Virus record (IMG/VR): IMGVR_UViG_3300042691_023046 | Span: 19,729-83,728 of that record | DNA length: 64,000 nt | Direction: 5' to 3' (one strand) | DNA from: a virus | In this document: piece after piece, positions 15,055-32,516 of the stretch | How positions within the stretch are numbered: position 1 is the stretch's first letter | Layout: each line of letters opens with the position of its first letter | Made by a program: the position numbers and the translations under genes | The notes under the pieces: model-generated | What the model saw: only the letters and a program-made list of their open reading frames with translations | Told to the model about the DNA's origin: nothing | The model's database searches: none

Positions 15055-15765
15055 TTATAACTTTTGTTCAATAAATTCATCAATAAAAGCAACTCTATCA
15101 TTATCACAAGGTTTACAATAGATTGTTGCTGATTTACAAAACTTAGTATTATAACTGTTTTCAAATTTTCTTAATAATTCTGTTATTTCTAAACTATTCC
15201 AACTATCTTTAATTAAGTTAATATTAATAGTATTGTCAGGATTTATTAATAATTTATTATCACAAGCAGGACAATCATCATTAAAAGCTGTACATAAAGC
15301 GTTTAATTCTTTACATTTAGTTTCATACTCTACCATTACTTTAGTAATTATATTGCCTTTATTGTATTCAGATATAAATATTTCAATAAATGATGTTGGA
15401 ATTTGTTGTACCCATACATTTTCTCCAGACTGTTCTTTTTTATTTACTAGTGAACTATCTGTTGTAGCTATTATTTTTTTACAAAATTCAATTAGGTGAT
15501 TTATTTCTTTATTTGCATTGAATATAAAATTAGAACTAATTCTTATACATTGATAAATAATTTTAGAATAACTTTCTCTTATATCATAAAACCAATCACC
15601 TTCTTCTATTTTATCATTTGAAGTAATATGTAGTTCATAATATTCATTTTTAAATGGATTATATAATTCTTCATCAATTATAGTTAAATATTCTTTATCT
15701 GAATTTAGTTTATTATTTGATTTAATAGCAATTATTGCTATATCATGTTGTTTAAAGTTTTTCAT
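15055..15765 (-). CDS. Hypothetical phage protein
   Basis: 236 aa; LHITSNDKIEEGDW...CKKIIATTDSSL...QIPTSFIE. Confidence 0.75.
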   Translation of the reverse strand: MKNFKQHDIAIIAIKSNNKLNSDKEYLTIIDEELYNPFKNEYYELHITSNDKIEEGDWFYDIRESYSKIIYQCIRISSNFIFNANKEINHLIEFCKKIIATTDSSLVNKKEQSGENVWVQQIPTSFIEIFISEYNKGNIITKVMVEYETKCKELNALCTAFNDDCPACDNKLLINPDNTININLIKDSWNSLEITELLRKFENSYNTKFCKSATIYCKPCDNDRVAFIDEFIEQKL

Positions 15766-18009: not shown

Positions 18010-18429
18010 TTAACTAGTTCTAAGTATTTTATTAAATTGTTCAATTGATATAGTTTTTTCCCAATCAATTCCTCCATGTTTAATAAATACTTCTTCTAAT
18101 ACTGTAATTGGTATATTACCAACTGTTCCTGTAGTATCATTTGGATTATCTCCATATTCAGACATTAATGGTTCATGTTCAGATGTAAATCCAAATTCTA
18201 CTGATTCATAAGTATGTCCTAATGTTCTATATCCATTTTCTGTACCACAATAATTACCATTATGTATTTGTAATGATACATTAAATCCATCTTTAGCATA
18301 TATTCTAGGACAATAAAAGTATTGATTATCATAGGACATTTGTTTTCCCATAAAATCTTTTTTACCTGATGTTATTGATGGTTGAAAAATAGACATTATT
18401 ATTAGTCTAAAAAATAGTGTTAAATTCAT
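18010..18429 (-). CDS. Conserved hypothetical phage protein
   Basis: DGFNVSLQ...YC...VEFGF...KHGGI pattern; real start probably the second Met (MSIFQP). Confidence 0.75.
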   Translation of the reverse strand: MNLTLFFRLIIMSIFQPSITSGKKDFMGKQMSYDNQYFYCPRIYAKDGFNVSLQIHNGNYCGTENGYRTLGHTYESVEFGFTSEHEPLMSEYGDNPNDTTGTVGNIPITVLEEVFIKHGGIDWEKTISIEQFNKILRTS

Positions 18430-18472
18430 AATTTTATAATTGATTGTTAAATTGGTTAGTTAATAAGTTTAA

Positions 18473-18504
18473 TACAACTGCATCAAATTAATGATACAGT
18501 TGTA
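18473..18504 (-). terminator. Intergenic hairpin (terminator or processing site)
   Basis: TACAACTG(T)ATCA / TGAT(G)CAGTTGTA with G-U pair on minus strand. Confidence 0.5.
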
Positions 18505-18510
18505 ATGTTG

Positions 18511-18708
18511 TTATTTTTCAATTGGTTTAACATTAGTAACATTATTACCATGTAACAAACTATTTAAATTAGCATCTAATTCTTCAAGTTGTTTAGTAGT
18601 TATTAATTTTACTTGATGTGCATGATTTAATAATGTAGTTAATTTACCATAAGCTTTCATTGTTTTATGGTCTAATGCTACTTGAATTGCTTCTTGATTA
18701 TGTAACAT
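18511..18708 (-). CDS. Hypothetical protein
   Basis: 65 aa ORF. Confidence 0.6.
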   Translation of the reverse strand: MLHNQEAIQVALDHKTMKAYGKLTTLLNHAHQVKLITTKQLEELDANLNSLLHGNNVTNVKPIEK

Positions 18709-18830
18709 AATTGTATTTATTAGTGTTGTTATTTATGATTAATTGTTTAATTTATTGTTTACAAATGTGAAGTTAAATGATGTGAATATCATGAAGATAT
18801 GTGAATGTGTTATAATAAATGTGCAATTTT

Positions 18831-19079
18831 TATTTAGTGTAATGAGAGTGTAGATTAATATTGTTGGGTTGTTAACATTTAACCAACCTCCATAACATTT
18901 AACTATCACATCAAATAATTATTTATCATATAACTATTATATAATAGCTATACATTTCCATCACATACCTGTTAATTTAATCAACATACATAATTACAAT
19001 TTAAGCTCCTTAAACTAATATTCTCCTACACTTTTAAATTATTATTATGTTATTAACTACACTTCATTCACACTAAATA
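18831..19079. repeat. ~30-bp imperfect inverted repeat enclosing ~190 bp
   Basis: tatttagtgtaatgagagtgtagattaata (18831) vs tattaactacacttcattcacactaaata (19051). Confidence 0.7.
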
Positions 19080-19195
19080 TTATATGTTTACAATTGTAAA
19101 GTTATATAATTTATAACTTGTTGTTAATCACCCATTTCTCTCTTTAGAAGCAAATAGATATACAATTATAGATACACTATTAATACACACAATAA

Positions 19196-19224
19196 AATAA
19201 GGAGAGTTTAACACTCCCCTTATT
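19196..19224 (-). terminator. Intrinsic terminator
   Basis: Minus AATAAGGGGAGT-GTTAA-ACTCTCCTTATT-TT just after stop of 19226-19465. Confidence 0.75.
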
Positions 19225-19225
19225 A

Positions 19226-19465
19226 TTATTTGATTGCTGCTAACAATTCTTCCATTGTAGAATATTCTACTTCGGCTTCAATAACTTTAGCAAAATTAAC
19301 GTATTCTAATCCTAGCTTAGTGAATACTCCTGATTTAATAACTTTATCAGTTTTTAATTGCTTAACAAATTCTGCTTCTGTTCCATTGTAAAACATTACT
19401 GTATTATCCTCAATGAAATCAACTCTAATTCCTTTTTCTGCGTTACTAATTTTAATTTTTTTCAT
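19226..19465 (-). CDS. Hypothetical protein, first gene of leftward arm
   Basis: 79 aa ORF with terminator. Confidence 0.65.
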   Translation of the reverse strand: MKKIKISNAEKGIRVDFIEDNTVMFYNGTEAEFVKQLKTDKVIKSGVFTKLGLEYVNFAKVIEAEVEYSTMEELLAAIK

Positions 19466-19915
19466 GGTACGGTGTATTTAATTGTTGTAGTTTAGTAAGG
19501 GTCGGGTTGTTGATGTGGTAGCCCCTTCTCTACATTTAAAACAAATTTTCAATTTTTACAAAATTTTAAAAAATAATTTTTTTATCAACATAGGGGTCTA
19601 TCATTACTTTTTTCTAATTTTATTAATTTCTTAATTTTTAAATTTTATAAAAAAAATTTTTATTGACCCTACTCATTATCACACTATATAGGTGTAAATT
19701 TATTTTCAATTTGGATTCCTTTAGAAGCCTATTCATAGGCAGTTAAAATACCCATGTTCACAGGAAACACTATATAAGTTATTGATTGTTAGTTGTTAAA
19801 GAAGTTAAATGATTGTATAATAATAAAATCTATAATTTGACAGTTTATTCAATTGATATTCAATTACTTAAAACATATTTTTATAAACAGTATTGTTTTA
19901 TTGAACAATGTTCAT
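19466..19915. other. Strand-switch region with clustered A/T tracts; candidate genome terminus, packaging site or origin
   Basis: Gene orientation flips here; repeated AAATTTT/AATTTTT tracts 19535-19715; GC patches gggtcggg, ggggtc/gaccc. Confidence 0.45.
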
Positions 19916-19922
19916 ATATTTG
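19915..19922 (+). promoter_or_regulatory. Bacteroidota -7 promoter box for rightward arm
   Basis: TATATTTG 5 nt before ATG 19928 (leaderless-like). Confidence 0.6.
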
Positions 19923-19927
19923 TACCC

Positions 19928-20224
19928 ATGCAAGACATAGATATAATTTTACACTTTCAAGAAACATTAAATTTTTTAACTCCTCATAATATACTAAAAA
20001 TAGATATTATATCAATAGATATAAAAGTTAAAAATAATATAGGTACAATAGATATATTAGCACATAAAAATGTAGATGAAAATTTAGAAGAAGTTGGTAA
20101 ATTTAATTATAAAGGTAAATATTCAAGTGATAAAACACAACTAATGAGATATTTAACATCTTGGTGTGAAAAATATAAAGTAGAATATTATATTAATTTA
20201 TCAGATAGTAGAGAATATAAATAA
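19928..20224 (+). CDS. Hypothetical protein
   Basis: ORF 19853-20224; ATG 19928 (MQDIDIIL) preferred over TTG because it follows the promoter box. Confidence 0.55.
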   Translation: MQDIDIILHFQETLNFLTPHNILKIDIISIDIKVKNNIGTIDILAHKNVDENLEEVGKFNYKGKYSSDKTQLMRYLTSWCEKYKVEYYINLSDSREYK

Positions 20225-20225
20225 A

Positions 20226-20390
20226 ATGACAGCACAAAACATAATAGATTATTTAAATAAATTAACTTCATTTGATAAAGAACAGGAGTTAAGTATTTTT
20301 GTTTCTAATGAAAATGGAACATTTAATTATAAAAAGATAAAAGATTTATTTATATCAGCAGAAAACATATTAGTAATTACAAATGAGTAA
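20226..20390 (+). CDS. Small hypothetical protein (54 aa)
   Basis: Manual translation MTAQNIIDYLNKLTSFDKEQELSIFVSNENG...ITNE*, fills gap and overlaps repL start. Confidence 0.55.
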   Translation: MTAQNIIDYLNKLTSFDKEQELSIFVSNENGTFNYKKIKDLFISAENILVITNE

Positions 20391-20919
20391 ACATATACCA
20401 GATTCTCTTAAAGGAGTTAAATCACCATTTATAGATAATTTAGTTATACCTATATTTACTAGATACAACACAGAAGATGTATCTAATCCTTCTAAATCTG
20501 TAATAAAAAATGATATAATAGTAGCAACAGGAGAAACACATAAAATATCAAGAAGTTATACCTTAGAAAAAGATAGAAAAGTTGATTTATATTATGAAAA
20601 TAATGGAGAAGATTTAAAACCTTATTATACAGCTTTATCAAAAGAAGGTAGAATGTTATTAGATTATATTTTATTTTATTGTTTAAGAGAAAATAAGTTG
20701 TTGTGTTATATAGATACAAAAGATTTTATGGATAAATATATGATAAAATCTAGGACAACTCTTTGGAATAGTAAAAAGAATTTAATAAATTTGACTTTTA
20801 TTACAGCTACTTCTTGTCAGAATTGGTATTGGATAAACCCTAAGTTTATGTTTAAAGGTTATAGAAGTAAAGTAATAGAACTAAAAGATAATTTAAAATA
20901 CACAACTAAAGAAGATTAG
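20383..20919 (+). CDS. repL: RepL-like winged-helix protein
   Basis: SRTTLWNSKKNL helix and WYWINPKFMFKG C-terminal motif. Confidence 0.7.
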   Translation: MSKHIPDSLKGVKSPFIDNLVIPIFTRYNTEDVSNPSKSVIKNDIIVATGETHKISRSYTLEKDRKVDLYYENNGEDLKPYYTALSKEGRMLLDYILFYCLRENKLLCYIDTKDFMDKYMIKSRTTLWNSKKNLINLTFITATSCQNWYWINPKFMFKGYRSKVIELKDNLKYTTKED

Positions 20920-20920
20920 T

Positions 20921-21139
20921 ATGTCAATTCAAAAAGAAACAAATAGTTTTAATGGTAGTAGCTTTTCTATAAGTCATATTATAGAAATGTTAGAATTTTC
21001 ATCAAAAACTACAATAACTAAACAATATAATAAATGTAAAAATGAATTAAATTCTAAAATAAAAGGAACAATTTTATTTTATGGTACACCAGGAAAAATA
21101 AACAATAATAATTTTGAAGAATTATGGAAGAAACTATAA
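20921..21139 (+). CDS. Mini-protein resembling a terminase ATPase fragment
   Basis: KGTILFYGTPGKINNNNFEELW vs own TerL SGTIIWFGTGGGKDNNWAGFKEIF. Confidence 0.55.
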   Translation: MSIQKETNSFNGSSFSISHIIEMLEFSSKTTITKQYNKCKNELNSKIKGTILFYGTPGKINNNNFEELWKKL

Positions 21140-21399
21140 TAGAAAAAAGTATAATAGAACAAATAAAAGATGTTAATTCTTACTCTGAATTAACTTTAGA
21201 AACTTTTAATAAATTTATAAAAGATTTAGAAGGAAGTGCTAAACAACAATCTAAACCAGAATTTAAACTACCTTCAAAAGAAGAATTATTAAAATTAGAT
21301 GATAATAAAAGTTATATGTTTGAAGGTAGTATATTTAATGGTAAATTTTTAAAAGAATTAGATAGTTATCTTACAGAACAATTTAATAAAGTTAAATAA
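21124..21399 (+). CDS. Mini-protein with weak similarity to an MCP segment
   Basis: SYSELTLETFNKFIKDL vs own MCP TYSFLTLNKWKNIVREV. Confidence 0.4.
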   Translation: MEETIIEKSIIEQIKDVNSYSELTLETFNKFIKDLEGSAKQQSKPEFKLPSKEELLKLDDNKSYMFEGSIFNGKFLKELDSYLTEQFNKVK

Positions 21400-21401
21400 A
21401 T

Positions 21402-21653
21402 ATGTTTCCATTTATACAATCAACTTTAATATTACCACCTTTATTTGATGAAGAAGGTAATGAAATTAAAAAACAAGAAAATGTAAAATCTTTAATTAAC
21501 TTAGAAGATATACACACAATGTGTAATTATCCTTGTGAAATAGGTACAGCTTTATCTATAATATATAAAACTATAGATGGTAATTTTTTATATCAAGATA
21601 ATTTTTTAAGAATACATCAAGAGTTATTAAAATTTCATAATTGGAAAAAATAA
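21402..21653 (+). CDS. Hypothetical protein
   Basis: 83 aa ORF. Confidence 0.65.
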   Translation: MFPFIQSTLILPPLFDEEGNEIKKQENVKSLINLEDIHTMCNYPCEIGTALSIIYKTIDGNFLYQDNFLRIHQELLKFHNWKK

Positions 21654-21682
21654 ACAAAATTTTATAATAACAAATAATTAAT

Positions 21683-21830
21683 ATGCCAAAAGATAAAGTA
21701 TTTACAATAGAAGAAATTAGAAATTGGTTATCAGAAGAAACAGGAATGTACGTTACTGATTTAAATAATAAAAAAAATTAATGTTCAAGAAAAGTTTGAT
21801 AAATTATTAAAAACAATTAAAAACAATTAA
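21683..21830 (+). pseudogene. Small gene with +1 frameshift at A8 run
   Basis: MPKDKVFTIEEIRNWLSEETGMYVTDLNNKK then +1 frame INVQEKFDKLLKTIKNN*; A8 at 21770-21777. Confidence 0.4.
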
Positions 21831-21837
21831 ATATACA

Positions 21838-22122
21838 ATGACAAATTATTTTAAACCTAAGTATGATTTAAATACATCTTTATATATTATATTAACAAAT
21901 GATATTAATATAACAGAAGTATTTATTAGTAGAATAGAAGTTTCAAAAGGATTTACTAAAGATAGTAATAAAATAAATTATGAATACTATTATAGTATTC
22001 CTCATTATCCAGAATATTTTAAAATAAATATAGATAGTGAAGATAAATTATCAAATAGTAGAAATATAAGATTATATGAATCTGTAGAAGAATTAAAAAA
22101 TAATATAATAGTTAAACAATAA
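21838..22122 (+). CDS. Hypothetical protein
   Basis: 94 aa ORF. Confidence 0.65.
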   Translation: MTNYFKPKYDLNTSLYIILTNDINITEVFISRIEVSKGFTKDSNKINYEYYYSIPHYPEYFKINIDSEDKLSNSRNIRLYESVEELKNNIIVKQ

Positions 22123-22126
22123 AATT

Positions 22127-22639
22127 ATGCAAGAACAAATTAAAAAATTAAGAGTACAAATTGATGGATACTATCAATTAACTAAAGAATTAAAACCTAT
22201 TGATAGAAAGCCAGAACCATTAACTATTGAAATGGTAAATTCTAAAGAAGTAAATGATGCTGCATATTCATTACTATACTCTAAAGCATGGTTAGGTAAA
22301 GTATTAGAAGCATTAGGTACAGAAAATCCTTATGGTAACGGTTATAAAACTAAAGAGGATATTGTACCTACACAAGATGTTTCTAATGGACAAGGATTAT
22401 TTAAAGATAACTTTGAATTATTGTGGTGGAAAAATGAATTAAACCACATAGAAAAGGTAGATTGGTTAAGGTGTTCTATCGAAGATACTATTAAAAATTT
22501 ATTATTAATAGAAAGTTTATTTACAGGACATAAAACAAGAGAGTTTTCTATAGCTAGAACAAATTGTTATAATCATTTGTGCGAGGCTAAATTTGCTTTA
22601 GGGTTTGAATTAGCTAGAGTAAGAGAGGAGAATGTATGA
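22127..22639 (+). CDS. Protein with two Acb2/Tad1-like helical hairpins (candidate anti-defence sponge)
   Basis: SKEVNDAAYSLLYSKAWLGKVL and TREFSIARTNCYNHLCEAKFALGFEL resemble the RE.S.A.T.LE.A.MW pattern. Confidence 0.4.
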   Translation: MQEQIKKLRVQIDGYYQLTKELKPIDRKPEPLTIEMVNSKEVNDAAYSLLYSKAWLGKVLEALGTENPYGNGYKTKEDIVPTQDVSNGQGLFKDNFELLWWKNELNHIEKVDWLRCSIEDTIKNLLLIESLFTGHKTREFSIARTNCYNHLCEAKFALGFELARVREENV

Positions 22640-22857
22640 ACAATAAAGAGATAGAAGAATATATTAAATGTAAAGAAAACCCTTATTACTTTATGACAAA
22701 TTATATGTATGTAACAAATTTTCATACTAATAAAAAAGAATTGTTTACAACACATTTAAATGAAAAAGAGTTTAATGAATTGTTTAAAGTTAAGATAGAC
22801 AATGTAATAACAGATAAGTTAAATAAAGTAAAAGAATTAAATCATGAAAAACTTTAA
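22636..22857 (+). CDS. Mini-protein resembling the N-terminus of T4-type large terminases
   Basis: EEYIKCKENPYYFMTNYMYVT resembles the E(W/Y)xKCxxDxxYFxxxY motif of gp17-type TerL. Confidence 0.55.
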   Translation: MNNKEIEEYIKCKENPYYFMTNYMYVTNFHTNKKELFTTHLNEKEFNELFKVKIDNVITDKLNKVKELNHEKL

Positions 22858-22921
22858 CTTCTTTCTCTTTAGAAGGAAATAAAAAATAAAACAAATCAAT
22901 AAATTTTAAATAAAATAAATT

Positions 22922-23221
22922 ATGAGTAAAACAACAAAAGAAGTTTCTAAAGAAGAAACATCACCTATTGTAGAAACAATAGAAGCAACTACAGAAGTAG
23001 TTGAAACAGTAGAAAATCCTATAACAGAAAGATTAACAGGTGAAAAAGGTGCTGATGGTGTAATGGGTACTGATGGTATATCAGAAGATTTACAAGAAAA
23101 ACAACCAGAAGTTATAGTTCCAGAAACTATAGAAGAATTACAAAAAGAAAGTGAAGTAGAAGAAGCAGAAATACCAACTGCTCCTACAGCAAATTATTCA
23201 CCAGAAAATCATCATTATTAA
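22922..23221 (+). CDS. Acidic disordered protein with short Gxx repeat
   Basis: E/T/P-rich; GEKGADGVMGTDG. Confidence 0.65.
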   Translation: MSKTTKEVSKEETSPIVETIEATTEVVETVENPITERLTGEKGADGVMGTDGISEDLQEKQPEVIVPETIEELQKESEVEEAEIPTAPTANYSPENHHY

Positions 23222-23225
23222 AATT

Positions 23226-23681
23226 ATGCTAGAATTTAAAAATTATATTGGTACAAAAAAGCTTAAAGCTACACCAATGAACAAAGAAGAATACTGTCAA
23301 TATAGAAATTGGATAGTACCAGAAAATGAAGTACCTACAGAAGATGGATATTTAGTAGAATATCAAGATGGTGGAAAACCTAATGATGAAAGACATGAAG
23401 GTTATATTTCATGGTCGCCTAAAGATGTTTTTGAAAAATCTTATATAGAAATAGTAGAAGAATCTTTTTTAGATAGAGTAATTAAAGAAGAATACGAATT
23501 AGGAGTTAAAATAACTGCTTTATCTAACTTTTTAAATAAAGATTATGTAAATAAAATAACAGGTGATTTACAATTTTCTTATTTAAATTTACAAAGAAGT
23601 GCTATGATAGCATACAGACAAATATTAATTATTAGAATAGAAGATTTAAAAAGTAAAGAAGAAAGTAAAGAACAAAAATAA
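23226..23681 (+). CDS. Two-domain protein: YIGTK...SWSPKDVF domain plus crAss001_48-like helical domain
   Basis: YIGTKKLKATPM...DGYLVEYQDG...YISWSPKDVFEKSY; FLDRVIKEEYEL...LQRSAMIAYRQILIIRIE. Confidence 0.65.
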   Translation: MLEFKNYIGTKKLKATPMNKEEYCQYRNWIVPENEVPTEDGYLVEYQDGGKPNDERHEGYISWSPKDVFEKSYIEIVEESFLDRVIKEEYELGVKITALSNFLNKDYVNKITGDLQFSYLNLQRSAMIAYRQILIIRIEDLKSKEESKEQK

Positions 23682-24205
23682 TGGAAAACAAATATTTATT
23701 TGACACAAATTTAGAACCATCAGAATATGATGTTTTAATAAATCCAATACCTTTAAAGAAAACAGGTATTATATTAATGGATAAATCTTTAAACAAAGAT
23801 GAAATATTACCTTATGTGATATTAGAGGTAGGTAGTGAAGTAAAAAATTATAAACAAGGAGATTTTGTTTATGTTTTAGGGGATATAGTAGGTTATCCTC
23901 ATTTAGTAAATGATGAAGGTTTACATGTAGGTCAAGTTAATGTAGGTTTTATAAAATCAAAAATAAAAAATAATAATGAATTTATAAAACTTTATAATGA
24001 AAGAATTGATGCTTTAGTAGCTGAACAAAAAGCTATTAATGAAAGATTATTAGTACCTAAAGAACAAGGAGATATATTTTTAAATGATACTCAAAGAAGG
24101 GAATATTATAAAAAAACTAAAAAAGAACAAGAGGAAATTGATAATGATATTAAATTAAATCAATTATATTTCAAACCTAAAAATAAAAATCAAATAACCA
24201 ACTAG
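23681..24205 (+). CDS. groES: GroES-like co-chaperonin
   Basis: DVLINP..KKTGIIL...VILEVGSEVKNYKQGDFV is the Cpn10 pattern; C-terminal helical extension. Confidence 0.65.
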   Translation: MENKYLFDTNLEPSEYDVLINPIPLKKTGIILMDKSLNKDEILPYVILEVGSEVKNYKQGDFVYVLGDIVGYPHLVNDEGLHVGQVNVGFIKSKIKNNNEFIKLYNERIDALVAEQKAINERLLVPKEQGDIFLNDTQRREYYKKTKKEQEEIDNDIKLNQLYFKPKNKNQITN

Positions 24206-24220
24206 TTAAGAAAAAAATAT

Positions 24221-24251
24221 AAAAGTGCTATACTATGTATGGCACTTTTTT
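24221..24251 (+). terminator. Intrinsic terminator
   Basis: AAAAGTGCTATAC-TAT-GTATGGCAC-TTTTTT with U-G pair. Confidence 0.85.
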
Positions 24252-24253
24252 AT

Positions 24254-24284
24254 TACTTTTGTTTGATTAATAATATTATTTTTG
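24254..24284 (+). promoter_or_regulatory. Bacteroidota -7 boxes upstream of packaging operon
   Basis: TACTTTTG (24254) and TATTTTTG (24277). Confidence 0.5.
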
Positions 24285-24285
24285 T

Positions 24286-24552
24286 ATGAAACATGATAAA
24301 ACTATAACAGATATTGTAGAACAATTAGCTACAGAATATAATTTATTACCTAGTGATGTATTTGAATTAATTAAATTCCAAGAAACACAAACAGTAAAAA
24401 TTATAGAAAACTCAATTGATAAATTACATAATATAAGAGTTGATGTTACAGGAAATTATAATAAAATAAAAATAATACATTTAATTAAACTAGAAATAGA
24501 TGAAACAAAAATTAAGAAAATTAATGATTGGATTACTGCCAATCAGAGTTAA
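24286..24552 (+). CDS. IHF/HU-like small protein
   Basis: IVEQLATEYNL..DVFELI helix pattern and IIHLIKL strand; position upstream of terminase as in crAss-like phages. Confidence 0.45.
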   Translation: MKHDKTITDIVEQLATEYNLLPSDVFELIKFQETQTVKIIENSIDKLHNIRVDVTGNYNKIKIIHLIKLEIDETKIKKINDWITANQS

Positions 24553-24698
24553 TATTAAAATTATACCTGATTTATGGGTATTAAGACCATATAAAGAAAA
24601 AATATTTTATACCATAGATAAAGAAAACTACACACCAATAAGTTACAGAATATTGTGCTTTTCTATTGTTTATGTTACATATAAAGATATAACAAACA

Positions 24699-25292
24699 AT
24701 GATAAAACTAATAATATTAGAAGATAATAAACCAGTATTTAATCCAGAAATAAGAATGTTTAAGCCTTTTAAAAGGCTACTAGAAAGAGATAAAAGTTCA
24801 AAGGGTGATGCAGATGGTAGAAAAAAACTAATAAGTACAAAAGAATTAGCTTTTATTTATTGGTTTATAGACCCTAGAAGTAATTATGTAGATGTTTATC
24901 CTGATGAAAAAATAAGAACAGAAAGAATAAAAAAGCATTTAGATTTACCAGAAGAATGGAAAATAGATGTTGATATAAAAGAAGCTATTGATTTTTATAA
25001 AGAACAAATAAATATTGATTTTGATATGATGTATTTAGAAAGTAATATATCAGCAGCAAGTAAAACTAGAGATTGGTTAATGAGTGTTGATTATAGTTTA
25101 AGAGATAGTAAAGGTAAAATGTTTTATGACCCATTACATGTAGCAAAAATAAACAAAGAAGCTGGTGGAGTTATAGAAGGATTGAAAATGTTAAAAAATA
25201 AAGCATTAAAACCAGAATCTTTAAGTACAAAAATTAGAGGTGGTGGTGAAAAATCTTTATTTGAAGATGCTGATACGGAGGATGATGAATAA
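24699..25292 (+). CDS. Conserved crAss-like protein upstream of TerL (possible small terminase)
   Basis: RDKS...KELAFIYW..DPRS; C-terminal KIRGGGE; TAATG coupling to TerL. Confidence 0.55.
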   Translation: MIKLIILEDNKPVFNPEIRMFKPFKRLLERDKSSKGDADGRKKLISTKELAFIYWFIDPRSNYVDVYPDEKIRTERIKKHLDLPEEWKIDVDIKEAIDFYKEQINIDFDMMYLESNISAASKTRDWLMSVDYSLRDSKGKMFYDPLHVAKINKEAGGVIEGLKMLKNKALKPESLSTKIRGGGEKSLFEDADTEDDE

Positions 25293-27430
25293 TGGAACAT
25301 GTATTATCCCAACCTAAAATAAAAGATTTAACAAAATTAATTGATTTTGGTTTTGATACTAAATTGTTTAGTCCTGTAGCAGAGTTATTTGAAAAAAATG
25401 GTAAATATCCAGATAAAAACCAAGTAGATTGGTGGAAAGAACAAAAAAAGATATTAAAAAAAGGATATACTGTTAATGGTTGGAAAATAACAGGAGAACA
25501 TTATGGTTATTTAAATTTTAATAAAATAAAACTTACCGAAGATAAAGATTTATTAGGTGGTAAAGTTAGTAAAAGAAGAAGTGTAATAGAAAAGAAAACT
25601 GTATTTCCTAAATTTTGGGATGGTGATTATGTCTTTTATTGGTGTAAAGAAATAGCCAAAAAAGGAATGGATGAAGATGAATATCTGAAACTAAAATTAC
25701 CAATTAAAATAAGAGTAGAAACAGATATAGATGGTACAAGATATGTAGGTGGAGGTAAAAACTTATGTGTTGGTAAAAAAAGAAGGTTTGGGGCAAGTTA
25801 TAAATTAGCTTATAATGCAGCACATAATTATGAAACTAAACCTACTTCAATGACTATATTAGCAGCTTATGATATGAAATATCTTACAAAAGATGGTATC
25901 ATGAGTAAAACAAAAAGAGCTATAGATTTTTTTGATGTTAATTGTGAACCATTTAGAAAGAGAAGATTAAAGAATGACACCGAAGATATTATGTCTGGTT
26001 ACAAACAGAATGTTGGTGGTGTTGAAACAGATGCAGGTTATAGAAGTAGAGTAGCAGCAATATCTTTTGGATTAAGTGCAGATGCAGTCAGAGGACAAGA
26101 TGTTACAGATATATTTGTAGAAGAAAGTGGTAAAGCACCTAATCTTATAGCTATGACAAATGCTACAATAGATTCATTGAGTGATGGAGCATCAAAAAGT
26201 GGAACTATTATATGGTTTGGTACAGGAGGAGGAAAAGATAATAACTGGGCAGGATTTAAAGAAATTTTTTATAATCCTACAAGTTATGGAGCATTAGAAA
26301 TAGAAAACGAATGGGATGAAAATGCTTTAGGTACTTATTGTGGTTTATTTATTCCTGATTATTGGAATGTAGTAGGTTACATGAGTGAATATGGAGAAAG
26401 TTATATTAATGAAGCAAGAAAAGTAGAAGAAGCACATCAAATAGAAGTATATTTAAATAAAAATGATGCTAGAGGTTTAACAGCTAGAAAGATGGAACAT
26501 CCATTTTGTCCTGCTGATGCTTTTAATGTTACAAGTAAAAATATATTTGATATACACGCTATAAGAACTTGGAAAAACTATTTAAAATATAGTGGTTTAA
26601 ATAAAGATTTAGCTACTGTAGGAAGATTAGAAAGAAAACAAGATGGTGAGTTAAAATTTGAAATAGATAATAAAATGTTACCTATTTATGAATATCCACC
26701 ACCAAAAGGAGTAACAAAAGGAGCAGTTGTTGTATGGGATTTTCCTAAAAAGTTTAATGGTTTAATACCTGCAAACTTATATATAATAGATGTGGATGGT
26801 TATAGACATGACCAAACATCAGGAGATTCAGTAGGAGCAATATATGTTAGTATGAATACTAATAATTTAATTTCTAAAAATTTAGGAGATAGATTAGTAG
26901 CAAGTTATGTAGCAAGACCACAAAGTCAAGATGATTTTAATAAAGTGTTGTATGATTTAGCAGAATTTTATAATGCTAAAATAGCTTTTGAAAATGATGA
27001 ACCAGCAGGGATAGTAGATTACGGTAAAAGATTTAAAAAATTAGATAGAGTAGAAAGTCAATTTGAATTAGCTTATGATGAAAAACTAAAAACAGGTAAC
27101 ACAATGAAACGTGGTTTTGGTATGCACATGGGTAGTGGTAAAAATAATGAAAGAATATTAACAGGTGATGGTTATATAAAAGATTGGTTAGAAACAACTA
27201 GATATACAGATGAAGATGGTAAAGAAACATTAAATCTTCACACTATATATGATATAGGTTTACTAGAAGAACTTGAAAGATATAATCCAGAAACAGGAAA
27301 TTTTGATAGAGTAGCAGCATTTAGAATAAGAATGTATCATACTAAAGAAATGATATATAAAAATAGACAAGCACAAGTAAAAGCAAAAAGTAATAAGGTG
27401 AGTTTTTTTCACCATAATCATTTTCAATAA
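25292..27430 (+). CDS. terL: Terminase large subunit
   Basis: KKRRFGASY (Walker A), IFVEESGK (Walker B), FGTGG coupling motif, IIDVDGY...DSVGA nuclease, NFDRVAA. Confidence 0.93.
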   Translation: MEHVLSQPKIKDLTKLIDFGFDTKLFSPVAELFEKNGKYPDKNQVDWWKEQKKILKKGYTVNGWKITGEHYGYLNFNKIKLTEDKDLLGGKVSKRRSVIEKKTVFPKFWDGDYVFYWCKEIAKKGMDEDEYLKLKLPIKIRVETDIDGTRYVGGGKNLCVGKKRRFGASYKLAYNAAHNYETKPTSMTILAAYDMKYLTKDGIMSKTKRAIDFFDVNCEPFRKRRLKNDTEDIMSGYKQNVGGVETDAGYRSRVAAISFGLSADAVRGQDVTDIFVEESGKAPNLIAMTNATIDSLSDGASKSGTIIWFGTGGGKDNNWAGFKEIFYNPTSYGALEIENEWDENALGTYCGLFIPDYWNVVGYMSEYGESYINEARKVEEAHQIEVYLNKNDARGLTARKMEHPFCPADAFNVTSKNIFDIHAIRTWKNYLKYSGLNKDLATVGRLERKQDGELKFEIDNKMLPIYEYPPPKGVTKGAVVVWDFPKKFNGLIPANLYIIDVDGYRHDQTSGDSVGAIYVSMNTNNLISKNLGDRLVASYVARPQSQDDFNKVLYDLAEFYNAKIAFENDEPAGIVDYGKRFKKLDRVESQFELAYDEKLKTGNTMKRGFGMHMGSGKNNERILTGDGYIKDWLETTRYTDEDGKETLNLHTIYDIGLLEELERYNPETGNFDRVAAFRIRMYHTKEMIYKNRQAQVKAKSNKVSFFHHNHFQ

Positions 27431-27441
27431 AAGATATATAA

Positions 27442-29811
27442 ATGGATGAAGTTTTAATAAGACCCAAACAAAAAGTTTTACAAGGAGTAAAAAATACAAA
27501 AGATTGGAAACATAACAATATTAGATATTGGGGAAGTAAATGTAATGCCACATTCTTTAATTTTAAAGATATGCTTGTTTTATTTAAAACAGCAGCAGGA
27601 ATATTAGATGAATCTGATTATACTTATATTACTAATCCTTTAAATACTACTGACCCTAAGTTAAAAGGTTATCCTGCAAAAATGAGAAATTTAGATATTG
27701 TTTCTCCTAACATTATGATGTTAATGGGGGAATTAATAGATAGATTTTTTAATCCTGTAGTAGTTATATTAAATAGTGATGTTAAAAATCAAAAACTTGA
27801 AAAAGATTATGAAATTATAAAAAACTATTTAAAACAAGAATTTATTAACGGTTTAGTTTCAGATGGTTTATTACCACAAGAACAAGCAGTAGAACAATCA
27901 CAACAAAAATTAGAAAAAGAATTAAGTAAAGATTATAAAAATGAATTAGCTATTATAGGGCAAAATGCTTTAGAATATATAATGTCGTTTAATGAAGTAC
28001 TTAGAATAAGAAGAAAAACATTTTATGATTTTATAGTATGTAGTAGGTTTTTTACATATAGAGATATATGTAATGAAGATTTAGATTATGAGTACGTTTC
28101 ACCTTTTGAATTATCTTATTTAGCATCACCTAATGTTGATTTTGTAGAAGATGCACAAGCTGTAAGAAAAAGGGTAAAAATGACAATTAATCAAATTATT
28201 GATAAATTTAGAGAGCATCCTGATTTTACAAAAGAGATTATAGATGATTTAGAATTAAATATTAGTTCAATAGGAGGAGCAGGTTTTAGTTTAAATGCAC
28301 CAGATTTAACACAACAATTTAATAGTGTATTTTTAACTAATAATTTACATTCTAGTACAGATGGTACAGGAGTAGAACATATTCAATGGACTAGTATGAA
28401 ACTAATGAAAAAAGTAGAAGGTACTAATATTGATGGTTCAAAATACATTGAAGAATATGATGAATCTTACATTCCTTTAGAAGGAGAAAAAGTAACTGAT
28501 ATATGGGTAAATTCTAAACATGAAGGTTATATTATAAATGATAAATGGGTATTAGGTGGAGAAGCTTTAGAATATCAAAGAGGTAATATTAATAATCCTA
28601 GTAAATGTAAAAATTCATATAATGGTAGAATTTTTGGTAATAATTATGTAATTCCACAATCTATTGTACAAAAAGGTTTAATTTATCAAATTAAATATAA
28701 TACTGTGCATTATTTAATGGAAAAAACATTAGCTAAAAATAAAGATAAGATAACAATCTTTCCTATGGGTTTAGTTCCAGAAAAAGAAGGTTTTGATATG
28801 TTTACTACAATGTATTATGCTGATGCACATGGATTTTTATTTATAGATGAAACTTCTGAAAAAGCTATAGCAGCTTTACAATATATGAAGGTATTAGATA
28901 TGTCTTTAGGTAATTACATACAACAGTCATATCAAATACTACAGCAAATTAAACAAGATTGGGATGATAGTGTAGGAGTTAATAGACAAAGAAAAGGAGC
29001 TATGTTAGCTTCTGATGGTAAAGGAGTATCTGAACAAGCAGAGTATAGAAGTGCTGTAATGAGTGAAGAATTTTTTATGCAGCATGAAGAAGCCATTATT
29101 AAAGATATACAATGTTTAGTTGATTTAAGTAAAGTAGCTTGGCAACATGGTAAAAAAGCATCTTTTTTAAATAGTAATAGTAAAGAAGTAATGTTAGAAA
29201 TAGACCCTACAGTATATAGTGGTTTAGATTTAGGAGTATTTGTTAAAAATAGTAAAAAAGAACAACAAAAAATACAAGCTTTTCAAAGTCAAGTTGGTAC
29301 AATTGCTCAACAAACACAAAATTTTAGTATGTTAGGTAAAATATTAGATAGTACTAATATGGCTGAACTTATTAAAGATATGGAAGAACTTGAAAATAAA
29401 TTAAATGAACAACAACAAGCGCAACAAGAAACAGAAAATAAACTTGAAGCAGCTAGATTAGAAAGTGAAGAAAAAGATAGACAATTAAAAGTTTATGAAA
29501 TTGATGAAAATAATGAACGTGCAAGAGATACAGCTTTAATATCTGCTCAAGCATCTTTATTAGGTAGTCAAGAAGGTGTAGAAGGAGTAGATGATGCTAT
29601 GTTATTAGAAGATATGAATCATAAAAGATTAGAATTAGCTTCTAAAATAGGGATTGAAAGAGAAAAAATATTAGAATCTAAAAATAAAAGAATAGATGAT
29701 AATAAAAATAAAGCAGAAGATAGAAAAATTGATATAAAAAATATGGCTAATGACTTAGCTATTGCAAAACAAAACAAAATCGGCAGAAACAAACCAACAA
29801 GTAAAAAATAA
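27442..29811 (+). CDS. Portal protein
   Basis: 789 aa immediately after TerL; VLDMSL, GVNRQRKG, C-terminal coiled coil as in crAss portals. Confidence 0.88.
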   Translation: MDEVLIRPKQKVLQGVKNTKDWKHNNIRYWGSKCNATFFNFKDMLVLFKTAAGILDESDYTYITNPLNTTDPKLKGYPAKMRNLDIVSPNIMMLMGELIDRFFNPVVVILNSDVKNQKLEKDYEIIKNYLKQEFINGLVSDGLLPQEQAVEQSQQKLEKELSKDYKNELAIIGQNALEYIMSFNEVLRIRRKTFYDFIVCSRFFTYRDICNEDLDYEYVSPFELSYLASPNVDFVEDAQAVRKRVKMTINQIIDKFREHPDFTKEIIDDLELNISSIGGAGFSLNAPDLTQQFNSVFLTNNLHSSTDGTGVEHIQWTSMKLMKKVEGTNIDGSKYIEEYDESYIPLEGEKVTDIWVNSKHEGYIINDKWVLGGEALEYQRGNINNPSKCKNSYNGRIFGNNYVIPQSIVQKGLIYQIKYNTVHYLMEKTLAKNKDKITIFPMGLVPEKEGFDMFTTMYYADAHGFLFIDETSEKAIAALQYMKVLDMSLGNYIQQSYQILQQIKQDWDDSVGVNRQRKGAMLASDGKGVSEQAEYRSAVMSEEFFMQHEEAIIKDIQCLVDLSKVAWQHGKKASFLNSNSKEVMLEIDPTVYSGLDLGVFVKNSKKEQQKIQAFQSQVGTIAQQTQNFSMLGKILDSTNMAELIKDMEELENKLNEQQQAQQETENKLEAARLESEEKDRQLKVYEIDENNERARDTALISAQASLLGSQEGVEGVDDAMLLEDMNHKRLELASKIGIEREKILESKNKRIDDNKNKAEDRKIDIKNMANDLAIAKQNKIGRNKPTSKK

Positions 29812-31013: not shown

Positions 31014-32516
31014 ATGAACGGAAAAATAGCAAATGAACTAGTCTTAACACAAGACACTTATAAAGATAGTGCTTATTCAAGCATTACTGAATTAAGTAAA
31101 GCTTTACAGACTGATGCAGAATGGTTATCACCTATAGTAACTTTTTTATCTTATACAGATACTAAATACTATATGAAGAAAAACTACCCTTTTTTATACC
31201 AAACAGAAGGTAATAAAAATGTAGAAAGTTTAACTAAATTAGGTAATGCTAATTTTGAATACAAATATCCTATTATAGGTAGATTAAAAACTACTAACCA
31301 AGTAGCAGTTACTTCTTTTTCATCTACAGACCAAGTAGGTAAAAATGGTATGCCTTTCCAAATGATATTTGCAGATAGACAGTTTTCAATAGGACAAACA
31401 GTTTATCCTTATGGTGTAAGTTCTAAATTACAATGTAGAGTATTAGTAGCACCAGAAAAAGTAAGTAATGGATATAAATATACATTTAAAATATTTAATT
31501 CAAGTCCTACTTTGTTTTTACCTTTTCAAAGTTTAATAGCAGGAGCAGTTTGGAGTGCAGGTTTAAGAAAAGTTGCATTTGAAGGTTCAAAAGGAGGAGA
31601 ATCACGTTCTCAATTACCTAGTACAGCAACTAATATGGTAACTTTAACTCGTAATACTTACAAGTTTAAAGGTAACGTAGATAAAAAAGTAATGAAATTT
31701 TCTATTCCTATAGATGGACAGAAATTTACTACTTATATGGATTGGGAATTGTTTTTAAGTAAAATTTATTTTAAAGAAGAACAAGAAGAAGATTTATTAT
31801 GGTCGCAATATGGTAAAACTGCTAGTGGAGATTTCTCTAACTATGATGATGATGCTCCTATTACATCAGGAGCAGGTATTGAGCAGCAAATTCCTAGTAG
31901 TAATTCAGATACTTATAGTTTTTTAACTTTAAATAAGTGGAAAAATATTGTACGTGAGGTAACTTATGGTATTAATGATGATATTACAGATTTACATGTT
32001 TACACAGGTAGAGGTGGTATGGAAGAATTTGATAATGCAGTTAAATCTGGATTTGTTAATTTCTTATCTAGTTCTAATGTATTAGCTAATAGTGATAAAT
32101 TTATACAAGGTGCAAATTCTTGGGATATGACATTTGGTTCATATTTTAATAAATATCGTGTAGTTGATGGACAAGTAATAACAGTACATTATCACCCATT
32201 ATTAGATTTTGGTCGTAGAGCAAAAGCAGCAGTTAAGCATCCTGTTACTGGTTTTCCAATGACATCACATAATTTCTACTTTATAGACCAATCACAAGTT
32301 GATGGTAAACCAAACTTACAATATGTAAGTGAAGATGGTAGAGAAAAAATGAAGATTGTACAAGGTATGACAGGTATGCCAGTAGGATTTACAGATAGTG
32401 TAAATGTTTCAACAGATAAAGATGAAACATCTATAGAATGGATGAAATCACATGGTATTTTAATTCGCAGACCTTCTAGTTGTTTCAAATTAGAATGTAC
32501 ATTAAGCGGATTTTAG
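31014..32516 (+). CDS. Major capsid protein
   Basis: 500 aa; GAGIEQQI, YTGRGGMEEFDNA, HPVTGFPMTS motifs; synteny. Confidence 0.9.
   Translation: MNGKIANELVLTQDTYKDSAYSSITELSKALQTDAEWLSPIVTFLSYTDTKYYMKKNYPFLYQTEGNKNVESLTKLGNANFEYKYPIIGRLKTTNQVAVTSFSSTDQVGKNGMPFQMIFADRQFSIGQTVYPYGVSSKLQCRVLVAPEKVSNGYKYTFKIFNSSPTLFLPFQSLIAGAVWSAGLRKVAFEGSKGGESRSQLPSTATNMVTLTRNTYKFKGNVDKKVMKFSIPIDGQKFTTYMDWELFLSKIYFKEEQEEDLLWSQYGKTASGDFSNYDDDAPITSGAGIEQQIPSSNSDTYSFLTLNKWKNIVREVTYGINDDITDLHVYTGRGGMEEFDNAVKSGFVNFLSSSNVLANSDKFIQGANSWDMTFGSYFNKYRVVDGQVITVHYHPLLDFGRRAKAAVKHPVTGFPMTSHNFYFIDQSQVDGKPNLQYVSEDGREKMKIVQGMTGMPVGFTDSVNVSTDKDETSIEWMKSHGILIRRPSSCFKLECTLSGF

Follow-up and report, generated by a model that had tools for sequence, protein, structure and literature searches.

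A crAss-like phage carries, in an accessory small-gene array, a free-standing relative of the N-terminal segment of T4-type large terminases

Introduction

Small accessory proteins of mobile elements can bind the subunits of a phage terminase: Ppi of the SaPIs is described as binding the small subunit (TerS) of phages, and Gpi of the PLEs as binding the large subunit (TerL) of ICP1 (PMC11417361). By analogy, the same mechanism may apply to a phage protein that we call ORF C. The two would be likened by mechanism alone; as far as that source tells, Ppi and Gpi are not fragments of TerL, and they are borne by satellites whereas ORF C is borne by a phage. TerL is also among the phage proteins sensed by Avs/STAND receptors, which are described as recognizing conserved core folds (PMC13581612). 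Compared with the proteins that these receptors sense (TerL, portal, major capsid protein (MCP) and others), ORF C is related to TerL but is without its ATPase core. A further comparison is offered by TerL genes split through homing-endonuclease or intein insertions, as in locus L015, where the N-terminal piece is a separate ORF with the same motif as ORF C. The L015 piece has 232 aa and runs into the ATPase domain, and the remainder of TerL follows after an HNH domain. In contrast, the ORF C family ends before Walker A, and no TerL remainder was found in two near-complete carrier genomes.

The DNA analyzed here is a stretch of 64,000 nucleotides (the window) from IMG/VR record IMGVR_UViG_3300042691_023046. 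A preliminary description of it had proposed that three mini-ORFs form a cluster of terminase and capsid fragments that might serve as immune decoys. Our analysis supports one real free-standing fragment of the TerL N-terminal type, ORF C; it does not support a cluster of decoys, and the likenesses claimed for the other two ORFs are at chance level.

Results

The small-gene array and its landmark genes

The window belongs to the genome of a crAss-like phage of 83,728 bp (83.7 kb) with direct terminal repeats, scored as 100% complete and with a GC content of about 23%. The features that matter for the argument are the following.

19853..24205, plus strand: small-gene array of about 14 tightly packed genes, opening the rightward arm (from ORF list, codon usage and skew)
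20921..21139, plus strand: ORF A, 72 aa, an ORFan with coding-like codon usage
21124..21399, plus strand: ORF B, 91 aa, an ORFan with coding-like codon usage
22127..22639, plus strand: 170-aa ORF, its stop codon overlapping the ORF C start codon (ATGA)
22636..22857, plus strand: ORF C, 73 aa, belonging to a conserved stand-alone family, with a conserved core (residues 1-50) and a variable C-terminal helix
23226..23681, plus strand: crAss001_48-related protein (PF21825, E 4.3e-13; phrog_872, E 1e-26)
24221..24249, plus strand: intrinsic-terminator-like hairpin (13-bp stem, then a run of T) separating the array from the terminase genes; recognized by consensus alone
24699..25292, plus strand: 197-aa TerS-like protein directly upstream of TerL, conserved with TerL in related phages
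25292..27430, plus strand: the phage's own TerL, crAss-type, 712 aa (phrog_6681, E 2.9e-96)
31014..32516, plus strand: crAss-type MCP (PF23898, E 5.5e-56; phrog_11589, E 2.9e-63)

A strand switch near 19.8 kb is visible in the GC and AT skew, and the array is probably a transcription unit of its own. The terminator-like hairpin comes after the last ORF of the array; four such sites are observed in 18400-25400, against 0.8 expected from shuffled sequences. The hairpin hints that the array may be expressed early or in the middle of infection. Each of the 15 small ORFs in 19853-25292 has in-frame codon usage like that of the large genes, and all 30 shifted-frame controls were negative; these ORFs thus look like genes and not debris. 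The three mini-ORFs exist with the coordinates and lengths first given for them. Wherever the listed pieces of contigs from four further runs cover ORFs A, B and C, they agree letter for letter with the window, and the sole variant stretch in these contigs lies within the ORF at 20383-20919.

The crAss001_48-related protein marks the array as crAss-like accessory genes. The stretch with the three mini-ORFs is the front of this accessory array, not fragments of the phage's own structural genes. The 170-aa ORF that runs into ORF C had no PHROG or Pfam match at E ≤ 1 and no PDB sequence match at E ≤ 10, and is not conserved beside ORF C homologues elsewhere. The 197-aa protein, for which PHROGs (E ≤ 0.001) and Pfam (E ≤ 0.01) gave no match, is suggested by its position to be the small terminase.

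The likenesses of ORF A to TerL and of ORF B to MCP

ORF A had been said to match the phage's own TerL, and both the matching strings and the count of 23 identical nucleotides in a 30-nt core are correct; as a real resemblance, the match does not stand out from the background. BLASTP of ORF A against TerL gives eight identities in 15 aa and 21.2 bits (E 0.007 for that single comparison). When 35 small ORFs of the window were compared with 13 large ones, six unrelated pairs outscored the ORF A/TerL pair and three tied with it. At the nucleotide level, 39 pairs of 30-mers with at least 23/30 identity link ORF A to other places on the plus strand, the best of them at 26/30, compared with 2-27 pairs (mean 16.4) for codon-shuffled versions of ORF A. 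Against TerL alone there is one such pair where the shuffles have a mean of 0.4, and at least one is reached by three of the 20 shuffles. By these comparisons the likeness of ORF A to TerL is at chance level. The E-value of 0.007 looks borderline only if multiple comparisons are ignored.

The likeness of ORF B to MCP falls lower still. The claimed stretch scores 17.3 bits (E 0.18), below each of the 25 best arbitrary pairs of window ORFs, all of which have at least 19.6 bits. No match to PF23898 or to an MCP PHROG was found at E ≤ 1, and no PDB capsid chain at E ≤ 10. Judged on these scores, the likeness of ORF B to MCP is at chance level and weaker than that of ORF A to TerL. Short likenesses of both kinds are what any pair of ORFs gives by chance at 23% GC.

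Profile and homologue searches give the same picture for both ORFs. ORF A has no match to a TerL profile in PHROGs and none in Pfam, each at E ≤ 1. Its single homologue cluster has 93% identity, with five substitutions among the final 32 residues, one of which (T50I) alters the claimed GTI core; ORF A is absent from five related records and has no relative in a metagenome scan. ORF B matched only itself in 5.8 billion proteins, and neither ORF is present among the ORFs of 16 loci. The homologue searches for both were word-seeded and used single sequences, and a very distant relationship to something may have escaped them. Both are lineage-specific ORFan genes. ESM Atlas structural neighbours of ORF A, found with a poor model (pLDDT 0.42), include no TerL; its feature matches (0.78-0.84) are unnamed clusters and sigma-70 region-4 clusters, in a score range that shuffled proteins reach as well, and a helix-turn-helix (HTH) reading of ORF A is a weak lead.

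Of the three ORFs, ORF C alone shows profile similarity to one of the protein families named for them, T4-type TerL, and recurs as a stand-alone fragment, in 43 clusters and dozens of loci.

ORF C and the segment before Walker A of T4-type TerL

A phmmer search with ORF C over 1.84 billion representatives gave 43 matches at E ≤ 1e-3, all of them 47-160 aa long. The alignment of the resulting 44 family members has a sharp motif, E..KC..PYYF..Y...FTT.L.E.EFN, with invariant columns P16, Y18, T39, F46 and N47. Most members (39/44) match phrog_5989, 'terminase large subunit', with a best E of 2.6e-8, and when the family profile was run against 177,635 PDB sequences three chains of T4 gp17 came top (E 0.011-0.018). 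In a tblastn search 525 of 50,697 phage records matched; for 31 of the 40 listed, the matching region falls within an annotated terminase, chiefly from T4-like cyanophages and jumbo phages. Flavobacterium myoviruses are also among the records matched, and the T4-type phages with the closest TerL N-termini are marine and freshwater myoviruses. Of 23 longer proteins that match the family profile at E ≤ 1, 20 carry both PF03237 and PF17289. Alignment of the ORF C family with T4-type TerLs in hhalign gave a probability of 96.9% (E 1.5e-10, 39 columns), a value that is partly circular because the TerL alignment was built from TerLs already picked by the family profile.

The AF2 model of ORF C (pLDDT 89.5) has an H-H-E-E-H topology. 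Its conserved surface residues are K11, T39, E43 and N47. T4 gp17 is its top Foldseek match in the PDB, with an rmsd of 2.1-2.2 Å over 38-39 columns (probability 0.63-0.77, E 1.2). The top named matches of a fold search in BFVD are TerLs (best E 0.11), and structural neighbours in the ESM Atlas are mostly Terminase_6N clusters. A wide fold search of the PDB gave no informative match, its best Z of 4.1 being driven by the long C-terminal helix. Taken singly, each of these statistics is modest (PDB E 0.011, Foldseek E 1.2, BFVD E 0.11). We accept the homology because several modest statistics agree: the predicted relationship of the ORF C family to the helix-helix-hairpin segment before Walker A of T4-type (Terminase_6) TerL is confirmed by sequence profiles together with modelled folds. 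This bears out the initial reading of ORF C as resembling the N-terminus of a T4-type TerL, a family other than that of the phage's own enzyme, with which ORF C gives no match.

The likeness to T4-type TerL (gp17, Terminase_6N/6C, phrog_5989) consists of the motif E..KC..P.YF...Y followed by a hairpin, and of the predicted helix-helix-hairpin fold. The differences are equally clear. T4-type TerL has a Walker A/B ATPase domain and a nuclease domain, and ORF C has neither: it gives no PF03237 match, ends where TerLs start the Walker A strand, and has no PF17289 nuclease region. Where T4-type TerL has a 'YPFQ' helix, the ORF C family instead has the invariant signature TT.L.E.EFN. The TerL sequences that we compared show the order YPFQ...RQTGKST, and in gp17 we take the adenine-binding Q to lie just after the ORF C-like segment, with Walker A behind it.

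Two ways of deriving ORF C from a broken TerL gene were considered and rejected. It is not the missing N-terminus of a split version of the phage's own TerL, which already possesses such a region and aligns to phrog_6681 from residue 42 onwards; there is no likeness between the two, and five ORFs and the terminator-like hairpin lie between them. Nor is it an exon or other piece of a split T4-type TerL, for a profile search of the whole phage genome gave no match to PF03237, and none was found in five related records (one of them 96% complete).

Conservation and distribution of the ORF C family

When the family HMM was run on the fetched loci it found 46 stand-alone ORFs, ORF C included, of 46-248 aa in 45 of 50 sources. 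Ratios of dN/dS lie between 0.15 and 0.47 (15 pairs, 8 of them distinct), so that the family is not evolving neutrally and is under purifying selection. No Pfam or NCBIfam model covers the family; among its 44 members there are just single-member zinc-ribbon matches. ORF C itself contains 12 K, no R and 12 D+E, and has no net positive charge. Conserved positions of the family (P, Y, Y, F, Y, T, E, F, N) hold aromatic, acidic or polar residues rather than basic ones.

The family is carried at variable positions, in many cases by crAss-like phages, and moves around genomes. Of the 12 stand-alone IMG/VR loci, 7 have a crAss-type TerL within the locus itself or elsewhere in its record. A single match to the family was found in prokaryotes, searched with one genome for each of 185,579 species. 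Homologues of ORF C adjoin a DNA polymerase (L004, L013) or a ribonucleotide reductase (L017). Their frequent place by genes of replication and nucleotide metabolism gives no pointer to packaging. Clustering of the ORFs within 4 kb of ORF C in 12 sources revealed no conserved partner family except the TerS-like/TerL pair, which is present in five. Where the family occurs in fusions, the partners match phrog_15656 and phrog_11079, whose annotations give no function, and have no Pfam match.

Discussion

It is probable, in our judgement, that the array is made up of accessory genes and not of structural-gene fragments, that ORFs A and B are ORFans, and that ORF C belongs to a conserved family of the T4-type TerL N-terminal kind. 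Protein binding is the most likely activity of ORF C because it is not basic and has no catalytic motif. In our reading, ORF C corresponds to the opening structural element of T4-type TerL (roughly its first 50 residues) encoded by itself: two short helices, a beta-hairpin and the next helix, ending just before the Walker A strand, without ATPase or nuclease parts. The N-terminal module of TerL has become a separate gene family, kept by purifying selection. As to what it does, we suggest tentatively that ORF C may present the surface of the TerL segment to a partner in a terminase machinery, that of its own phage or of a competitor, and may thus modulate or block packaging and not act as an enzyme. 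A predicted co-fold of ORF C with the TerS-like protein (24699-25292) scored 0.01 against a mark of 0.32, and speaks neither for nor against such a partnership.

A more pointed version of this proposal makes ORF C an inter-phage weapon, in which an N-terminal module facing TerS or a neighbouring subunit titrates the TerS, or poisons the terminase assembly, of T4-like co-infecting phages. The producer's crAss-type terminase would be immune, being non-homologous. ORF C is most similar to the TerLs of T4-like phages, and a T4-type TerL is missing from both of the near-complete carrier genomes searched. Against it, the ORF C-like segment of gp17 belongs to the ATPase domain and is not an obvious free tail. 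Precedents exist in the established packaging-blocking action of Ppi (through TerS) and Gpi (through TerL), and the distal N-terminus of lambda TerL is described as a TerS-binding site (PMC11417361). On balance we regard a weapon of this kind as unlikely. Its most specific form, limited to a subset of crAss-like phages, is more doubtful: a domesticated T4-type N-terminal module would act as a dominant-negative weapon against T4-like phages in the same cell, titrating their TerS or capping their motor subunits and leaving the producer immune, or would jam a host sensor for that type of TerL.

ORF C could instead be a small nucleic-acid-binding regulator of transcription or replication, its helix-helix-hairpin being winged-helix-like. 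The H-H-E-E-H topology would suit this role, as would the zinc ribbons found in some members of the family (P0012, P0028, P0036 and L007) and the DNA polymerase or ribonucleotide reductase genes that adjoin some homologues. The conserved positions are not basic, however, ORF C has no net positive charge, and no HTH or winged-helix match was found in Pfam or NCBIfam among the 44 members, all of which make a regulator of this type improbable.

The phage's own terminase is another conceivable partner, for instance through an adaptor or regulatory role of ORF C towards the TerS-like protein or the crAss-type TerL. In the window and in L011, L012 and L014, the TerS-like/TerL pair follows ORF C within 4 kb on the same strand; the pair is less than 4 kb away on the opposite strand in L008 (of which L010 is a copy), and about 5 kb downstream in L005. 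This proximity does not hold throughout the family, however, and in other phages homologues adjoin replication genes, with every TerL over 10 kb away. In the window the terminator-like hairpin parts ORF C from the terminase genes. The family is absent from, or not detected at a meaningful E-value in, the cultured crAss-like phages of the phage collection, where matches at E < 1 lie under T4-type TerLs; ORF C is thus not a core part of the packaging machinery, and we give a role with the phage's own terminase little credence.

The decoy proposal cast the three ORFs as non-activating decoys of, or dominant-negative ligands for, host immune sensors of terminase or capsid, such as Avs/STAND NTPases and CapRel. 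If true, a cluster of such decoys would be a new principle of counter-defence, but two of the three genes owe their place in it to chance matches. ORF C does give it some footing, as a truly free-standing piece of TerL fold that is conserved under purifying selection and is encoded in an accessory array of small genes, where anti-defence genes are usually housed. The premise nevertheless fails for ORFs A and B, which have no real likeness to TerL or MCP, and ORF C resembles a type of TerL that the phage does not use, so that mimicry by it could give the phage's own enzyme no protection. None of our results points specifically to an immune decoy or to a packaging inhibitor. Our literature search found no TerL-fragment decoys or dominant-negative TerL fragments in the partial texts that it covered. 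We consider the decoy reading very improbable. Equally remote, and largely refuted, is the reading of ORF C as a product of convergence or chance, or as the decaying remains of what was once a TerL gene. The alignment is short, at about 39 columns, and the E-values of single searches are modest, but PHROGs, PDB sequences, tblastn, longer proteins and three fold searches all lead to one segment of one TerL family. Debris is excluded by the 43 clusters, which have invariant residues and dN/dS below 0.5.

What stands is that a piece of the T4-type packaging ATPase has turned into an independent, selected and mobile small-protein family in phages that package their DNA with a different enzyme. Its partner would reveal what second use has been made of part of a core virion-assembly enzyme, and might bring to light an inhibitor of packaging that one phage directs against another. 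The family is at present lumped with TerL in PHROGs, and matches to phrog_5989 can cause its members to be mis-annotated as 'terminase large subunit'.

Organization and coding potential of the small-gene array

The 64,000 nucleotides under study are bases 19729-83728 of a complete virus record of 83,728 bp, which has direct terminal repeats and a completeness score of 100%; the GC content is 20-31% across the window. Genes to the left of about 18.4 kb point leftward, and those from 19853 onward point rightward. The closest named phages are those of the Flavobacterium FpV4 group, with a TerL (large terminase) identity of only around 32%; FpV4 shares the layout of the window, with several small hypothetical genes and a gene of about 190 amino acids followed by TerL, portal, and major capsid protein (MCP). 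The relevant features are:

19853-24205, all same strand: array of about 14 tightly packed small ORFs, including A, B, and C
20921-21139: ORF A, 72 aa
21124-21399: ORF B, 91 aa
22636-22857: ORF C, 73 aa
23226-23681: crAss001_48-related protein (PF21825, E 4.3e-13)
24221-24249, + strand: strong terminator-like hairpin, 13-bp stem and T run, directly after ORF 23681-24205
25292-27430, rightward arm: crAss-type TerL (phrog_6681, E 2.9e-96)
27442-29811, rightward arm: portal (phrog_6547, E 2.4e-81)
31014-32516, rightward arm: crAss-type MCP (phrog_11589, E 2.9e-63; PF23898, E 5.5e-56)

The hairpin precedes the terminase genes, and is one of four terminator-like sites found in the region against 0.8 expected from shuffles; its position suggests that the array may be transcribed apart from the terminase and structural genes. 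The rightward arm also holds an ORF of 3853 amino acids at 51889-63450.

ORFs A, B, and C are present exactly where the preliminary description placed them. A codon-usage log-odds score, trained on nine large genes, was positive in frame for 15 of 15 small ORFs (A, +0.67 to +0.71 nats per codon; B, +0.87 to +1.17; C, +0.23 to +0.65) and negative in all 30 shifted-frame controls. By codon usage, the small ORFs look like real genes.

The likeness of ORFs A and B to the terminase and capsid proteins is at chance level

It had been proposed that ORF A resembles the phage's own TerL and ORF B its own MCP, and that A, B, and C may form a cluster of immune decoys. The strings quoted for ORF A and TerL, and the count of 23 identities in 30 nucleotides, are correct. 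BLASTP aligns the two proteins with 8/15 identities at 21.2 bits; the E-value of 0.007 obtained as a lone comparison overstates the match, because many small ORFs had in effect been compared with many large ones. When all 35 small ORFs of the window were compared with all 13 large ones, the ORF A-TerL score was outranked by six unrelated pairs and tied by three; the claimed ORF B-MCP match (17.3 bits, E 0.18) scored below the top 25 arbitrary pairs. At the nucleotide level, comparing the 30-mers of ORF A with those elsewhere on the + strand yields 39 pairs of at least 23/30 identity, the best at 26/30; after codon shuffling the number is 2-27, with a mean of 16.4. When only TerL is considered there is one such pair, for a shuffle mean of 0.4, and 3 of 20 shuffles reach at least one. 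Searches of PHROGs and Pfam (E<=1) gave no TerL or MCP match for either ORF, PDB searches (E<=10) hit no terminase or capsid chain, and the ESM Atlas neighbours of ORF A include no terminase. Both likenesses are therefore attributable to chance, and most of the supposed decoy cluster falls away with them.

A word-seeded search of 5.8 billion proteins returned only the self-match for ORF B, and for ORF A a single cluster at 93% identity, whose five substitutions all lie within the last 32 residues and in which the claimed 'GTI' core reads 'GII'. ORF A was not found in five related crAss-like records, nor a relative of it in one metagenome scan, and neither ORF was found among the ORFs of 16 fetched loci. 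A and B thus lack both the profile similarity and, beyond that one variant of A, the recurrence by which the preliminary description proposed to judge them; they are ordinary lineage-specific small phage genes. Residues ~14-40 of ORF A resemble a helix-turn-helix, and sigma-70 region-4 clusters are among its feature neighbours in the ESM Atlas, though at scores (0.78-0.80) that shuffled proteins also reach.

ORF C is related to the N-terminal region of T4-type TerL

Direct comparison gave no likeness between ORF C and the phage's own crAss-type TerL. In PHROGs, ORF C alone had weak matches to two TerL families, at E 0.0017 and E 0.014. Searching 1.84 billion cluster representatives by phmmer gave 43 proteins at E<=1e-3, all of 47-160 amino acids. 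In the alignment of ORF C with these stand-alone relatives (the C family), P16, Y18, T39, F46, and N47 are invariant, and E8, K11, C12, Y17, F19, Y23, and E43 nearly so. Of the 44 aligned sequences, 39 match the 'terminase large subunit' family phrog_5989, with a best E-value of 2.6e-8; a Pfam or NCBIfam family common to the 44 was not found.

Against all PDB sequences, the top three matches of the C-family profile are chains of T4 gp17 (E 0.011-0.018), aligned at chain positions 122-155 of 2o0h and 97-130 of 3ezk. By tblastn, 525 of 50,697 phage records match ORF C, with a best single E-value of only 0.01; among the best 40 of the 525, mostly T4-like cyanophages and jumbo phages, 31 matches fall under an annotated terminase. 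The profile also matches 23 proteins of 281-2000 amino acids at E<=1, of which 20 carry Terminase_6N and 6C and three are fusions of uncharacterised function. An hhalign comparison with ten T4-type TerLs gave 96.9% probability (E 1.5e-10, 39 columns), a partly circular result since the ten had been chosen by the C-family profile itself. Read side by side, the C-family 'FTT.L.E.EFN' stands where TerL has its 'F..YPFQE..' helix, just before Walker A, with the nearly invariant E43 at the TerL Q position; this last correspondence is an unscored, ungapped extension of the hhalign alignment.

The AlphaFold2 model of ORF C, built with the family alignment (pLDDT 89.5), has the topology H3-14, H16-23, E25-28, E33-36, H43-72. 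Its top Foldseek matches in the PDB are T4 gp17 structures (rmsd 2.1-2.2 Å over 38-39 columns, probability 0.63-0.77, E 1.2-6.4), the top named matches in BFVD are terminases (best E 0.11), and its structural neighbours in the ESM Atlas belong for the most part to Terminase_6N clusters (TM by query 0.53-0.56). No single statistic is strong, yet the independent routes all converge on one segment of one TerL family. The proposed resemblance of ORF C to the T4-type TerL N-terminus, rather than to the phage's own TerL, is thus real, with sequence and fold searches in agreement.

Distribution and selection of the C family

Twelve of the 14 loci found in IMG/VR are stand-alone genes; the other two, L015 and L016, are true T4-type TerLs with the C-family motif at the N-terminus. 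The L015 TerL is interrupted by an HNH-domain ORF: at L015:1737-4897 it is apparently split into a 232-aa N-terminal ORF (phrog_5989/phrog_2) and a 655-aa ORF with matches both to the TerL C-terminus and to HNH endonucleases. Seven of the 12 stand-alone genes (L004, L005, L008, L010, L011, L012, L014) share their locus or record with a crAss-type TerL, and L007 has eight replication-module proteins in common with the window; no crAss-type TerL was found in the remaining four records, which are fragments, 5-37% complete. Neither the window's complete genome nor five related records (one 96% complete) contain a Terminase_6N match.

A metagenome scan added 37 loci, and prokaryote genomes, taken one per species (185,579 species), a single match on a 6.4-kb MAG contig. 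Across sources, the C-family HMM finds 46 stand-alone ORFs of 46-248 amino acids in 45 of 50. Among the 38 new loci (nine of at least 10 kb), a T4-type TerL query matched in three, each time through query residues 14-82 only and coinciding with the C-family ORF. None of the 38 showed a complete TerL, whether T4-type or crAss-type. Source names are nearly all 'hypothetical protein', with one 'predicted amidophosphoribosyltransferase'. Nei-Gojobori dN/dS was 0.15-0.47 in 15 pairs of 73-94% protein identity, amounting to eight distinct comparisons; one further pair had a single synonymous difference.

The position of the gene varies among phages: it lies upstream of a TerS-like (small terminase)/TerL pair in the window, L005, L011, L012, and L014; in L004 and L013 it is next to a DNA polymerase gene, and in L017 it precedes ribonucleotide reductase. 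No neighbour family travelling with it was found. Some members bear zinc ribbons or uncharacterised domains.

Possible role of ORF C

ORF C is a domesticated, free-standing form of the module that precedes Walker A in T4-type TerL, kept by selection in phages whose packaging, where examined, relies on a non-homologous terminase. ATPase and nuclease functions are excluded for it. At the conserved positions the residues are aromatic, polar, or acidic and not basic, which suggests that it binds protein more probably than DNA. Excerpts of PMC11417361 describe small mobile-element proteins that bind TerS (SaPI Ppi) or TerL (PLE Gpi), and place the TerS-binding site of lambda TerL at its distal N-terminus; given these precedents, the most natural guess is that ORF C may modulate or interfere with packaging. 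Weaker still is the proposal that it is an immune decoy: ORF C mimics a TerL type absent from its own phage, and excerpts of PMC13581612 report that Avs sensors read a core fold, which ORF C does not have. Entries and passages returned by full-text literature searches held no description of free-standing TerL-N proteins or TerL-fragment decoys. What survives is a family of small proteins that derives from a known TerL element and is encoded on its own, open to test and of modest interest; no Pfam or NCBIfam model for it was found.

Neighbouring genes and related loci

ORF 22127-22639 (+ strand, 170 aa) is translationally coupled to ORF C through an ATGA overlap; neither Pfam nor PHROGs (E<=1) nor PDB sequences (E<=10) gave a match for it, and no homologue was found beside the C-family genes of other loci. 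The uncharacterised phrog_15656 family (window ORF 15055-15765) occurs near the C-family gene in L008 and L011, and is fused to a C-family domain in a 248-aa protein at L033:9389-10135. L023, a 2.3-kb contig, carries two tandem C-family paralogues (770-937 and 1299-1499). The crAss-type TerL at L012:5746-9060 is 1104 amino acids long, with an insert of about 330 residues (~610-943) that looks like an intein and has matches to PHROGs of other TerLs, primases, and helicase loaders; at L014:6715-9756 the TerL match falls in two pieces about 1.1 kb apart.

ORF 20383-20919 (178 aa), just upstream of ORF A, belongs to no known family but is well conserved in the related contig L005 (56% identity); the C homologue of L005 is located some 300 bp upstream of it. 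Window 20383-22900 is letter-identical, wherever covered, in contigs of four further public runs from different studies, three labelled fungus metagenome and one freshwater metagenome; the only variation seen is a diverged stretch at 20641-20864, inside ORF 20383-20919.
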